Source of the DNA: Eledone cirrhosa
Taxonomy: Eukaryota
Reading direction: 5' to 3'
Length of the DNA stretch: 64,000 bases
NCBI GenBank assembly: GCA_964016885.1
Contig: CAXHJY010001687.1
Location: 135,281-199,280 of the forward strand
Positions 1 through 53,802 of this stretch are shown in pieces; positions within the stretch are counted from its first letter, which is position 1; the number at the start of each line of letters is the position of its first letter. The notes under the pieces were generated by a model, which saw only the letters and a list, made by a program, of their open reading frames with translations, did not search any database and had not been told where the DNA came from. The translations under genes were made by a program, and so were the position numbers.

Positions 1-1158
1 GTGGGCCCCTGATGCTTTCAAGAAATATATTTTAAAAAAATGGTCAAGTGATACACATAACTGTGACACTTAGTGCCTTCGTGGGCCCCTGATATATTCA
101 AGAGATATATTCTAAAAAAAAAAAAAAATAAAAAAAATAAAAAAAAAAAAATATATATATATCTTATCTCAATTTACTTTATTTCATTTTATTTTATTTT
201 ATTTTATTTTATTTCATTTCATGTTATCTAATTTTATTTATTTACTTATTTAATTCCATTTATTTATTTATTTATTTATTTATTTATTTATTTACTTATT
301 TATTTATTTATTTATTTATTTATTTATTTAATTTTTACTTATTTATTTATTTATTTATTTATTTATTTAATTACATTTAATTACATTTAATTATACATTT
401 AATTATATCTTATATTATATTATTTTAATTTCGTCTATGTTATTTGATTTTAGTTTACCTTATTTTATCTTATTTTATGATTATATTATATTATGTTCTA
501 TTTTATATAATTTTAATTTTAATTTTATATTATTTTATCTCTTTCCTTACCCTGTATCACTATTATCTGTATATTTTATATTTTATATGTAAGTTTGTTA
601 TGTATTTCTTTATATTTTCTTATATATATTATAAGTCTGTTTTTCACCTATTTTTTACCTACTCTTACCTAATCCTATCTATCTTATCTACTCTTGTCTG
701 TTCTCTTATCCATGTGTATGCTTGTATGTAACTATATGTTGACAGCACCCCGCCCAACTGTGACTGATAGCACCCCTTATTTTTCATTGTTTATTTTTCA
801 TTGCTTATTTTTCATTGTTTATTATCTTATTTTTATTTTTATTTTTATTTTTATTTTTATTCTTATCTTTATTTTTACTTTTACTTCCTTAATATCCTTT
901 ATCGTCTATTATTATTTTTCATTCTTCAATGTCTTGGATTTGTTATTGCTTGTATGGTATGTAATTAACCTTTATGCTCTGATGAGTCCCACTTATAGTG
1001 CGGATGAAACAATGTTAGCAAGTAAAGATATGCATATGCTATAGGCGTTCTTTGTTATTTATTATATCACGGCTCTGTCCTCAGACATTGAGCTAACCTT
1101 ATACTGCCTGCTGGATAAGTGGAGTGTTATACACCCCTGATCCTCTCCCTAGTATACT
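1..1158 (+). mobile_element. 3' non-coding region/pseudo-LTR (pLTR) of a Penelope-like element, cut by window start
   Basis: Long T-rich UTR with an 80-bp direct repeat (1-110) and an HHR at 975-1020. Terminal motif GGCTCTGT..CATTGAGCTA is shared with the PLE end at 36340-36364. Ends in (TA)n. Confidence 0.6.
975..1020 (+). ncRNA. minimal type-I hammerhead ribozyme
   Basis: TGCT-CTGATGA-GTCC..GGAT-GAAA-CAATG-TT-AGCA; stem I TGCT/AGCA. Confidence 0.75.
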
Positions 1159-1490
1159 ATATATATATATATATATTTATATATATATTTATATATATAT
1201 ATATTTATATATATATATATATATATATATATATATATATATATATATATATATATATATATATTTATATATATATATATATATATTTATATATATATTT
1301 ATATATATATATATATATATATATATATTTATATATATATATATATATTTATATATATATTTATATATATATATTTATATATATATATATATATTTATAT
1401 ATATATATATATATATTTATATATATATTTATATATATATATATATATTTATATATATATATATTTATATATATATATTTATATATATAT
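1159..1490. repeat. (TA)n microsatellite with TATT interruptions
   Basis: direct reading. Confidence 0.98.
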
Positions 1491-1785
1491 AAAAACAAAT
1501 AACGAAACGAAATTAAATTTTTTTTCGTTTGTAACTCACTTTTGTATGACTGACGCTTAAACAATTAAGTTAAAGATGTACATCCATATATGTATACTGA
1601 AATACTAGTATGTATATGAATACACACACGTATACATATGTAGATGTACCAAGTTTTTTTCACTGGTCACTTTACTGTGAGTGGCCAGCTATTCTGTATG
1701 TAAACACACAGACAAACCGGTTTTTAGAGTCATACTGGTTTTTGAGGAAACACCTTTCCTCTATTCTCCAGAAAGCCAGACAAGG

Positions 1786-1830
1786 AATATTGAACTAGTT
1801 TCGTTGTTGTTACAACTCATCAGCAATATT
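1786..1830 (-). ncRNA. hammerhead ribozyme (mirror of 2204-2248)
   Basis: reverse complement of the 2204-2248 motif. Confidence 0.85.
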
Positions 1831-2203
1831 TACCTATCTTCCGGCCTCTCTAGAGAATCGTAAAAGCACATATCGTTATATGCTTTTTCTATGAAAATTA
1901 GTAGTGGGCAGACTAATTTGCATAGAGTGTGAGTAAGTACCGGTTCAACGGAGACGATAAAAACAAATAACGAAACGAAATTAAATTTTGTTTCGTTTGT
2001 AACTCACTTTTGTATGACAGTCATACAAAAGTGAGTTACAAACGAAACAAAATTTAATTTCGTTTCGTTATTTGTTTTTATCGTCTCCGTTGAACCGGTA
2101 CTTACACTCTATGCAAATTAGTCTGCCCACTACTAATTTTCATAGAAAAAGCATATAACGATATGTGCTTTTACGATTCTCTAGAGAGGCCGGGAGATAG
2201 GTA

Positions 2204-51320: not shown

Positions 51321-51800
51321 TACATACATAATATATATATATAATGTAGACATACATATATACATAATATATACATACATATATACATAATATATATATA
51401 TAATGTATACATACATATATACATAATATATACATAATATATATATATTATGTATATATATATATTATGTATATATATAATGTATACATACATATATACA
51501 TAATATATATATAATATATACAAATATATGATATATACATAGATATATTATGTATATATATATTATGTATATATATATATATTATGTATATATATATATA
51601 TATTATGTATATATATATATATTATGTATATATATATGTATATATTATGTATATATATATGGATATATTATATATATATTGATGATGATATTATGTATAT
51701 ATATATATATATATATATATGTAATTATTATATATATATATAGCTATACATTGTATATATATATATATATTATGTATATATATACATTATATATATATAC

Positions 51801-52435
51801 TATGCCAACTCGTTTTCGAGTACGGCCACTACTTTAAAACCATGTAGGAGAATCCCTACCAATGCGCTGAACGAGTGTGACTTTTTAGTCCAGCCAGCGA
51901 CTTGAAAACTCTGGTACAAACACTACACTCGTGACAATTATTGACACATAGTGCGGGGCCCATGGTACCATGTGACGACAAGTGCAGAGAGATCTCAAGA
52001 TATAAAGCAATGCCTGTGCCGTGAAGCTTTTATAGTGAGCAAAGGCACTGCACAGAGCCAGTCCCACTCTCTTAACCAAGATGATATTTACCAAAAAGAA
52101 GAACAAGTCAACATCATTGGATATCATCAGGGTTGCAGGTGTTATATCAGAGTTTTCCTTCTCCTAGAAGTTTTCCTTCTCCGAGAAGTTTTCCTTCTCC
52201 TAGAATTCTGCCTTGACAAAGGCTAAGTGGTCGTCTCTCCCGGTGATTTTGGATGGCCATTGACTCTTAAGAGCTCCTTTGACAGGTTTTGTTTTTAGTC
52301 CTGCAGGATGTCCAAAGTCACCCTCCTCACCAAGAAACCTTGGTAGGGTTGCCAGTTTAGTCGCCAACGACCCGACCATGAGACAGGTTGTACTGGGATA
52401 CATGTTACTAGTAGCACCAACTGGTGACCTGACCA
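51801..52435 (-). mobile_element. probable 5' end/UTR of an RTE-like LINE
   Basis: GC-richer structured head ending CGACTAAACTGGCAACCC, TAAAAACAAAACCTG motif, 21-nt x3 repeat at ~52150-52205. Confidence 0.45.
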
Positions 52436-52587
52436 TACATAATATATACATATATATATATATACATAATATATATATATATATATTATATATACATATA
52501 TATATATATATATACATAATATATATATAATATATATATACATAATATATATATATATAGTTATATATATATATATAACTATATAAT

Positions 52588-53802
52588 ATAAGATCAAAAG
52601 ATGGTTAAAGGAGTTCCATGTATTTTATTATGCGCATTTCAAAAACAAACATCATCATGCAATAATATTTGTGTTTTCATCAGATAAAACAGGAGAACAT
52701 GATATGAAGGCTAAAAAACACTTGTGGATAGTGCAGTTTTAAATCAACATATGAAAAGTGGTTTTAGATTGATGTGTGATATTGGGAAAAATATTTTATT
52801 TAGAGAGGGGGGGTGGAAAGGATGAACAGGGAAGGAAATGAGAGGGAGAGATGGGTGATAGAGAGAAAGAGATAGTTTTTATAACTGAGAGGAGATATAT
52901 TGTTTTACATAGAGAGGTTGAAAACCGTCGGAAGATAATGTATAAATTAAAAATTTTGAAAATTAACGAAGGGAGGATATGTGCGAGGAAAAAATATTTT
53001 ATTTAGGGAGGGGGGTGGAAAGGATGAAAAAATTGCCACAATACATACATTTCTTTTTTTGACGTTAGAATATTCATCCACAATTATTATTTTTTTCTCT
53101 CTATCTTCATACATAATTTCCCTTCGTTAATTTTCAAAATTCCTTTAATTTATACATTATCTTCCAACGGTTCCCAACCTCTCTATGTTAAAACAATATA
53201 TCTTTTTCTCAGTTATAAAAACTATCTCTTTCTCTCTATCACCCATCTCCTCCCCCTTTTTTTCATCCTTTCCACCCCCCTCCCTAAATAAAATATTTTT
53301 TCCTCGCACATATCCTCCCTTCGTTAATTTTCAAAATTTTTAATTTATACATTATCTTCCAACGGTTTTCAACCTCTCTATGTAAAACAATATATCTCCT
53401 CTCAGTTATAAAAACTATCTCTTTCTCTCTATCACCCATCTCTCCCTCTCATCTCCTTCCCTTTTCATCCTTTCCACACACACCCCCCCCTCTCTAAATA
53501 AAATATTTTTCCCAATATCACACATCAATCTAAAACCACTTTTCATATGTTGATTTAAAACTGCACTATCCACAAGTGTTTTTTAGCCTTCATATCATGT
53601 TCTCCTGTTTTATCTGATGAAAACACAAATATTATTGCATGATGATGTTTGTTTTTGAAATGCGCATAATAAAATAAATGGAACTCCTTTAACCATCTTT
53701 TGATCTTATATTATGCATACTCCAGTCCTACAAACTGTAGAGTGCTTCTTATCCGATATCTGCATTGCTTTATTGTACTACAATAAAACTCACCTCCTAC
53801 AT
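52588..53802. mobile_element. fold-back pLTR-like element with ~90-nt tail
   Basis: arms ~52588-53030 / 53240-53710; internal direct repeats. Confidence 0.85.
53608..53674 (+). ncRNA. hammerhead ribozyme (mirror 52623-52689)
   Basis: TTTTAT-CTGATGA-AAACACAAATATTATTG..TGATGATGTTTGTTTTT-GAAA-TGCGCA-TA-ATAAAA. Confidence 0.82.

Follow-up and report, generated by a model that had tools for sequence, protein, structure and literature searches.

Putative retrozymes and Penelope-like element ends share a paired two-ended insertion footprint in (TA)n tracts of Eledone cirrhosa

Hammerhead ribozymes (HHRs), U3-A8 hammerhead cores, (TA)n targeting and terminal tails have all been published for Penelope-like elements (PLEs). 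Members of the Hydra clade, PLEs with a C-terminal endonuclease (EN+), insert into (TA)n and carry HHRs (PMC8557442); the supplement of that paper includes a cephalopod element, Hydra-1_Obim, with a (TA)n preference and an HHR that has U at the cleavage position. Circular templates of more than unit length have been proposed for PLEs with minimal hammerheads (PMC4209133), and PLEs have been proposed to mobilise metazoan retrozymes that lack long terminal repeats (non-LTR retrozymes; PMC7229834; 10.64898/2026.07.22.740005). In vitro, the Poseidon PLE protein PAc cuts and extends both strands of AT-rich targets, and two internal start sites of reverse transcription bound the tail (PMC11167929). 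In PLEs of A. vaga, the tail lies on one of the inverted pseudo-LTRs (pLTRs), and self-priming was favoured (PMC3846280). Here, we analyse a 64,000-nucleotide stretch of the 3.0-Gb Eledone cirrhosa genome (GCA_964016885.1; the final 64 kb of the 199,280-bp contig CAXHJY010001687.1, from position 135,281), hereafter the window. It holds HHR-like motifs of 12 families. We consider it likely that these are nine families of PLE 3' ends and three retrozymes using PLE enzymes, all twin-primed into (TA)n tracts. The families add members to known groups and do not represent a new type of element.

The window alternates between TA tracts, which make up 19.3% of its bases, and 59 TA-delimited islands. 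A strict type-I descriptor (C3-G8 or U3-A8 core, with one extra base permitted after A9) found 12 matches in eight families (Table 1), each having the type-I core (CUGANGA or U3-A8, GAAA...NUH) with stems I to III. Local dinucleotide shuffles gave on average 0.08 (maximum 1) and 0.12 (maximum 2) matches in 60 shuffles each, an excess that the original prediction, an earlier reading of the bare sequence, had implied. Relaxed family patterns gave 25 HHR-like copies in 12 families, which we labelled A to L. Every position at which a type-I HHR had been predicted does hold such a motif, and five copies are additional (3694, 25540, 37507, 45687 and 46354, four of them damaged). The claim that most islands contain an HHR was too generous, as only 18 of the 59 do. 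Matches to CTGANGA inside open reading frames (ORFs) of RTE and CR1 type (e.g., 44048, 48897 and 52130) lacked stems and were discarded. Judged as sequence motifs, the HHRs of the window are real.

Rfam models also match some copies, namely HH9 at 1770-1841 and 2193-2264 (family B; E = 6e-6 and 1e-5) and Hammerhead_1 at 33492-33536 (family J; E = 0.0047). None reached the gathering score (best HH9, 37.7 of 52 bits; Hammerhead_1, 29.1 of 34). Minimum free energy z-scores of isolated HHRs were weak, from -0.4 to -2.1, with -5.8 in family H owing to its long stem II, and are not taken as support. Across the 20 strict skeletons that recur, the stems differ in sequence but remain paired, with four pair types at 2.1-1.1 and three at 10.1-11.1. 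Note that stem pairing is demanded by the descriptor itself, whereas the palindromic stem III, present in 15 of the 20, is not. Because stem III is palindromic, the predicted self-cleavage would probably occur in dimers. Family I fails the strict descriptor through a bulged stem II, yet its predicted fold has the HHR topology and includes a U3-A8 core, a GUC site and a palindromic loop III of 8 nt. Families F and K, with a stem I of only 2 bp, and family H, with extra bases at the foot of a stem II of about 110 nt, also fail it. The minimal PLE hammerheads of PMC4209133 share several of these features: U3-A8 covariation, an extra base between positions 9 and 10.1, a palindromic helix III, dual HHRs on opposite strands 100 to 700 bp apart, and many families per genome. 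Several families of the window differ from them, with long stem II inserts (C, I, L and H) and A-U at 10.1-11.1.

Nine of the families are very probably PLE 3' ends, and the other three ORF-less retrozymes. Inside the window, families D, F, G and J run on into PLE ORF remnants. Four families had been predicted to be linked to PLE ORFs, which is correct for these four; family C merely abuts an unrelated PLE fragment. Families A, E, H, K and L lack an ORF within the window but continue elsewhere in the genome into full reverse transcriptase (RT) and GIY-YIG ORFs. ORFs adjoining the HHR encode 821 amino acids (aa) in family L (locus L112), 844 aa in A (L245) and 830 aa in H (L254), while K has an ORF1 plus a 777-aa ORF beside the HHR, and the E motif is part of a two-ORF unit of 4,871 bp. 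The expectation that families without ORFs would be PLE ends or non-autonomous elements was therefore borne out: these five reach PLE ORFs, and B, C and I stay ORF-less tandems. The suggestion that the families are unrelated in sequence was not. D and L have stem I in common, E and K share the U3-A8 core and 55-61% identical proteins, the proteins of A and J are 56% identical, and the ORF DNA of F and G is 69% identical.

By motif, A, D, H, J and L appear to be 3' ends of Hydra-clade PLEs, and E, F, G and K appear Neptune-like; for the Hydra-type families, a comparison by eye was also made against the supplement alignment. All five Hydra-type families have a CxCx5C linker plus a C-terminal GIY-YIG with CxxC and CxH, and all insert into (TA)n with an HHR in the pLTR, although J was seen in three copies only. 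The full-length A, H and L proteins have DKT, with RWR, RWR and RWT where RWK is expected; D and J are truncated. PMC8557442 describes the same linker, DKT, RW motif, C-terminal CxxC/CxH, (TA)n preference and HHR near the 3' end for the Hydra clade. Its elements, however, are generally below 3 kb with tails of 30-40 nt, whereas the units found here are longer (about 4.9 kb in A and 6.6-7.1 kb in H) and have tails of 85-137 nt. In the H units (L253-L260), a 3' untranslated region (UTR) of about 3.5 kb, rich in TA tracts, travels with the element. Families A, D, H, J and L are distinct from the Hydra elements given in the supplement of PMC8557442, where five family motifs gave no match. The original prediction that the families may be uncatalogued thus holds as far as that one supplement reaches, where a sixth motif had two unrelated matches. 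Families K and G have the CX4CxxC linker before GIY-YIG, E has a K-like variant, and F was assigned by reading the window sequence; this type of linker corresponds to the CX2-5CxxC of Neptune-type PLEs in PMC8557442. DKG was seen in K only. K and E differ from Neptune-type elements in their U3-A8 core and upstream ORF1, and their placement is again by motif only. In three loci (L246, L263 and L439), this ORF1 of about 325-430 aa begins about 170 nt after the HHR motif.

Families B, C and I meet the sequence criteria of non-LTR retrozymes. They recur as tandem units of 467 bp (B), about 655 bp (C) and 591 bp (I), each with one type-I HHR motif. The longest ORF that begins with ATG encodes 30 aa in B and 75 aa in I, and blastx of B and I against nine PLE proteins gave no match; the ORF-less status of C is judged from its tandem structure. 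Published metazoan retrozymes are likewise ORF-less tandem units of low GC with one type-I HHR each, and they coexist with PLEs (PMC7229834; 10.64898/2026.07.22.740005). The units found here are longer than the 170-400 nt of PMC7229834. All 18 units over both arms of one B insertion are identical, as expected from rolling-circle copying, where the mean between insertions is 13 differences; variants common to these units distinguish them from most other insertions. Older relatives of family B are common (66-68% identity over about 240 nt; L116, L239, L008, L129 and others), and locus L014 holds a relative of family I at 72-83%. A further HHR tandem family, with a 310-bp unit in at least 11 near-identical copies, occurs at L402 (1-3400) and L434.

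PLEs and putative retrozymes leave the same insertion footprint. In each well-sampled family, copies end at one of two fixed 3' ends, short and long, 33-166 nt apart and followed by (TA)n, and the interval between the two is the PLE tail. Of 479 terminal copies in nine families, 422 terminate at one or other of these sites beside (TA)n. The architecture of EN+ PLEs, consisting of 5' truncation, an inverted arm and a tail at one end, was found in seven families, B and I among them. Head-to-head pairs from seven families number 131, of which 111 join one long and one short end, three are long+long, one is short+short and 16 are unresolved. Independent choice of ends would give about 50% mixed pairs (p = 1e-28 for 111 of 115 resolved pairs and 6e-17 for 111 of 131), although the pairs were drawn non-randomly from first-listed matches, mostly on contig C1, and include a few segmental duplicates. 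The three long+long pairs, with three to eight TA tracts inside them, probably represent separate insertions. The arms of one insertion differ by 0.2-1.6%, compared with 2.2-4.6% between insertions. We mapped 109 of 117 long+short pairs (eight were dropped for low coverage): 34 had a longer untailed arm, 25 a longer tailed arm, and 50 had equal arms. The rule of one long and one short end is thus common to PLEs and retrozymes alike, and either arm may be the longer. In inverted pairs of three families, both arms tend to stop at a preferred distance from the motif end (about 145 nt in H, 125 nt in L and 70 nt in E). A footprint of two fixed ends and inverted arms is not reported for retrozyme insertions in the accessible text of PMC7229834 or 10.64898/2026.07.22.740005. 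Likewise, the accessible text of PMC11167929 and PMC3846280 neither quantifies the pairing of one long with one short end nor explains it by twin priming.

For these insertions, we favour twin target-primed reverse transcription from two start sites, a mechanism we hold to be reasonably probable. A PLE protein, probably dimeric, would bind one RNA that reads through the HHR, either uncleaved or circularised, and nick a (TA)n tract on both strands. Reverse transcription would then be primed by each 3'-OH, one per internal start site, and the two cDNAs, halting at variable points, would be end-joined in head-to-head orientation, usually over 0-3 nt of microhomology. Families would pile up in (TA)n because PLE enzymes likely cut there. 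Families B, C and I likely use the RT/GIY-YIG enzymes of PLEs in trans; their tandem arms would be copied from a circle or multimer and then partly expanded at the DNA level. Insertions continue straight across the predicted cleavage site, so the template was uncleaved or re-ligated RNA. That it was circular is a tentative proposal, which we put slightly below an even call. The same caution applies to the strongest form of the model, in which every PLE enzyme here would be two-headed, obligately using one start site per strand, and the retrozyme template would be an HHR-made circle copied repeatedly. A search for B arms starting at the predicted cut site gave 45 matches, against 44 for a control shifted three bases downstream, a comparison blurred by microhomology that shows no excess; inspection covered 30 of the cut-site matches only, and 15 of them were real junctions. 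A literature search lacking most subscription journals found no paper on twin priming in PLEs.

The families are genome-wide repeats. Exact matches number 973 for A, 5,147 for B, 339 for C, 6,346 for D, 13,904 for E, 6,301 for H, 7,300 for I, 2,121 for K and 21,961 for L, a total of 64,392 for the nine families counted (F, G and J were left out), with none for the reversed-motif control each time. A 20-mer from the window's own K copy had no match outside the window, and an initial C pattern occurred at 12 places; both were copy-specific variants and were replaced. For family I, a DNA similarity search of the genome came back empty with very common words skipped, and exact patterns were used. 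Copies elsewhere in the genome are flanked by (TA)n, in agreement with the original prediction.

Several observations weigh against our reading, besides the non-random choice of pairs. RTE, CR1/L2-type and short interspersed nuclear element (SINE) copies also sit in TA tracts of the window, so TA flanks alone are not PLE-specific. Several HHR copies of the window carry core mutations, and F, H and K, with their weak stem I or irregular stem II foot, are structurally weak motifs and doubtful ribozymes. PMC11167929 saw no strand difference in start site, with pairing outside its tests, and insertion there did not require HHR cleavage. Among the loci examined, no partner PLE was found for B or I, within the matches listed (at least 44 of low identity, all B). 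A 20-unit B insertion has a period-3 variant on one arm that is absent from the other, and in the B insertion L432/L433 (11+11 motifs) a single variant marks units 3, 4, 6, 7, 9 and 10 of one arm only. One array alternates AB-AB, the C units are diverged, and a C array of about 28 kb (C1:92,986,063-93,015,688) has higher-order spacing of 657/1315/1321 bp; it is a retrozyme turned satellite. These one-arm variants and array patterns point to DNA-level expansion or assembly effects, and assembly polishing could homogenise array units. An alternative takes B, C and I as ordinary satellites derived from PLE pLTRs and amplified at the DNA level, any RNA template being a linear uncleaved multimer and the HHR a passenger. 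Higher-order patterns and the long C array suit it, as do HHR mutants that left insertion unreduced in vitro (PMC11167929) and the cleavage of only one of nine Xenopus dimers (10.64898/2026.07.22.740005). It has to contend with thousands of dispersed, TA-flanked, two-ended insertions, which show RNA-mediated mobility of the unit, with intact cores and palindromic stem III kept across diverged subfamilies, and with B and I monomers that, as circles, fold far better than shuffles (z = -14 and -6; 25 shuffles). We regard it as possible but somewhat doubtful. The inverted arm and one-sided tail could also arise by self-priming or fold-back with endonuclease resolution of a DNA intermediate (Arkhipova 2013, Craig 2021). 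Near-equal arms in 50 of 109 pairs, the hotspot junctions and the single short+short pair, a perfect fold-back with its flanks included, would fit such a route; start sites in read-through copies also contain TA/AT steps, at which an enzyme that cuts TA could act, weak evidence in AT-rich DNA. In 34 of the 109 pairs, however, the untailed arm has upstream sequence absent from the tailed arm, which alone has the tail, so that in these pairs neither arm can have been copied from the other by fold-back. At most B and I junctions (16 of 24), the overlap is 0-3 nt, with no long palindrome. We therefore consider the fold-back route unlikely as the general explanation and retain twin priming.

The original prediction also regarded the density and diversity of HHRs in this locus as unusual. 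In that case the window might be a special locus, a selected ribozyme cluster or trap for transposable elements, home to ribozyme elements of a new, (TA)n-embedded class. The window does have 12 strict matches per 64 kb, against 5.0 in 51 hand-spread 10-kb genome samples (40 matches at 7.9% TA, 11 of the 40 from one array), and 20 against 13 per 100 TA tracts. This 2.4-fold excess equals the 2.4-fold excess in TA over the samples, and the 60 kb to the left of the window is equally dense (12 matches, or 12.8 per 64 kb, at 20.5% TA). The locus is thus not special in HHR density, and no special explanation is needed. All nine counted families are repeated across the genome, each structural feature has a published precedent among PLEs or retrozymes, and 16 HHR families are already known from one coral genome (PMC7229834). 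A special locus is largely refuted and very improbable. Extrapolated from the samples, the whole genome holds very roughly 2x10^5 such motifs. Literature searches with the same limits listed no survey of HHRs in a comparable genome.

Table 1. HHR-bearing and PLE-derived features of the window. Hydra-type and Neptune-like placements are by motif; "strict" marks matches to the strict descriptor.
Feature	Position	Strand	HHR motif	Other features
Family A, 3' UTR/pLTR stump of Hydra-type PLE	163..1157	+	979 (strict)	Long (tailed) end; predicted cut after 1016 (GUU)
Family B putative retrozyme, head-to-head pair	1491..2475	.	1823(-), 2211(+) (both strict)	Junction 2017/2018; long end on left arm, short end on right arm
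Family C putative retrozyme, ~1.7 units of 651 bp	2688..3791	-	3694 (stem I damaged), 3043 (strict)	Short end
Degraded PLE fragment unrelated to family C	3800..5700	-		CxCx5C linker and GIY-YIG; frames 4352-5167, 5095-5511; abuts family C
Family D inverted pair	5812..7830	.	5912(-), 7645(+) (latter strict)	Left short end, right ~85-nt tail
Family E stump	9610..9757	-	9719 (strict; U3-A8, 3-nt insertion in stem III)	Short end
Family D 5'-truncated PLE	9790..12928	-	9892 (strict)	ORF 11318-12928 (536 aa, RT + CxCx5C + GIY-YIG); 3' UTR ~1.5 kb
Family D 3' stump	13325..14089	-	13422	
Family F short inverted stumps	18700..19330	.	18956(-) (HHR-like)	Stem I 2 bp only
Family G inverted pair	19880..21267	.	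20135(-), 21065(+) (both strict; extra base after A9)	GIY-YIG remnant 20320-20762 (PF01541, E = 5.5e-5)
Family H inverted pair, 3' ends of Hydra-type PLE	22010..22530	.	22343(-) (atypical, ~110-nt stem II)	Left arm bears ~137-nt tail
Family F broken Neptune-like PLE	23005..25777	+	25540 (C3>A)	Frames 23253-25270; inverted tailed pLTR at left
Family I putative retrozyme	31905..33425	.	~32229(-), ~32817(-), 33268(+) (U3-A8)	Two 588-bp units on (-) and inverted partial unit
Family J 5'-truncated Hydra-type PLE	33445..36450	-	33530 (strict)	ORF 35316-36347; long 3' UTR
Family E 3' UTR and short inverted piece	36612..37680	+	37507 (G12>A)	66-nt tail
Family K near-perfect hairpin, 3' ends of two-ORF Neptune-like PLE	45540..46165	.	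45980(+)/45687(-) (U3-A8 motif)	Weak stem I; 33-nt tail on right
Family L small inverted stump	46225..46450	.		Core degenerate
Family L inverted pair	52580..53810	.	52683(-), 53614(+) (both strict)	Left short end, right 90-nt tail

The islands of the window that lack HHRs include pieces of RTE, CR1/L2-type, mariner and tRNA-derived SINE elements, the RTE and CR1/L2-type clade names being a reading of protein domains. Taken together, the repeats of the window look octopod-like. Two further tandem repeats were seen. Family M (26929-29960; 51 exact genome matches) has five 590-bp units without an ORF; it lies between TA flanks and has two fixed ends and short arms in inverted orientation, resembling the PLE footprint, and inspection revealed no recognisable HHR. 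Family N (25816-26810 and 30232-30737; 1,472 exact genome matches) has a unit of about 600 bp, occurs as tandem dimers and has one fixed TA-flanked end, with no inverted arm among 20 loci inspected. It contains CTGATGA without a matching GAAA, and no HHR is recognisable. RTE-like elements at 42856-45006 and 14779-16571 have a PHD finger within the RT ORF (PF00628, E = 7.8e-6), and numerous 3' stumps ending in (CAT)n also sit within TA tracts. At 13147-13297, two RTE-like 3' ends form a perfect hairpin, tail-out, between TA tracts, which echoes the PLE layout in another class of retrotransposon. SINE-like copies headed by a tRNA (14430-14762 and 30850-31183; Rfam tRNA, 28.1 bits) are fused to an RTE-like 3' end. 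Between TA tracts at 50010-51325 lies a mariner-type transposon that has terminal inverted repeats and whose transposase (PF01359) is broken.

The pairing of one long with one short end in 111 of 115 resolved pairs, over seven families, gives a sharp prediction for the existing in vitro system on inverted and tailed PLE insertions. The footprint common to retrozymes and PLEs is direct genomic support for the mobilisation of retrozymes by PLEs. If PLE enzymes are indeed two-headed and retrozymes are copied from circles, a single mechanism would explain the PLE tail, the inverted pLTR and the retrozyme arrays, and there would be genomic proof that retrozymes are SINE-like parasites of PLEs.

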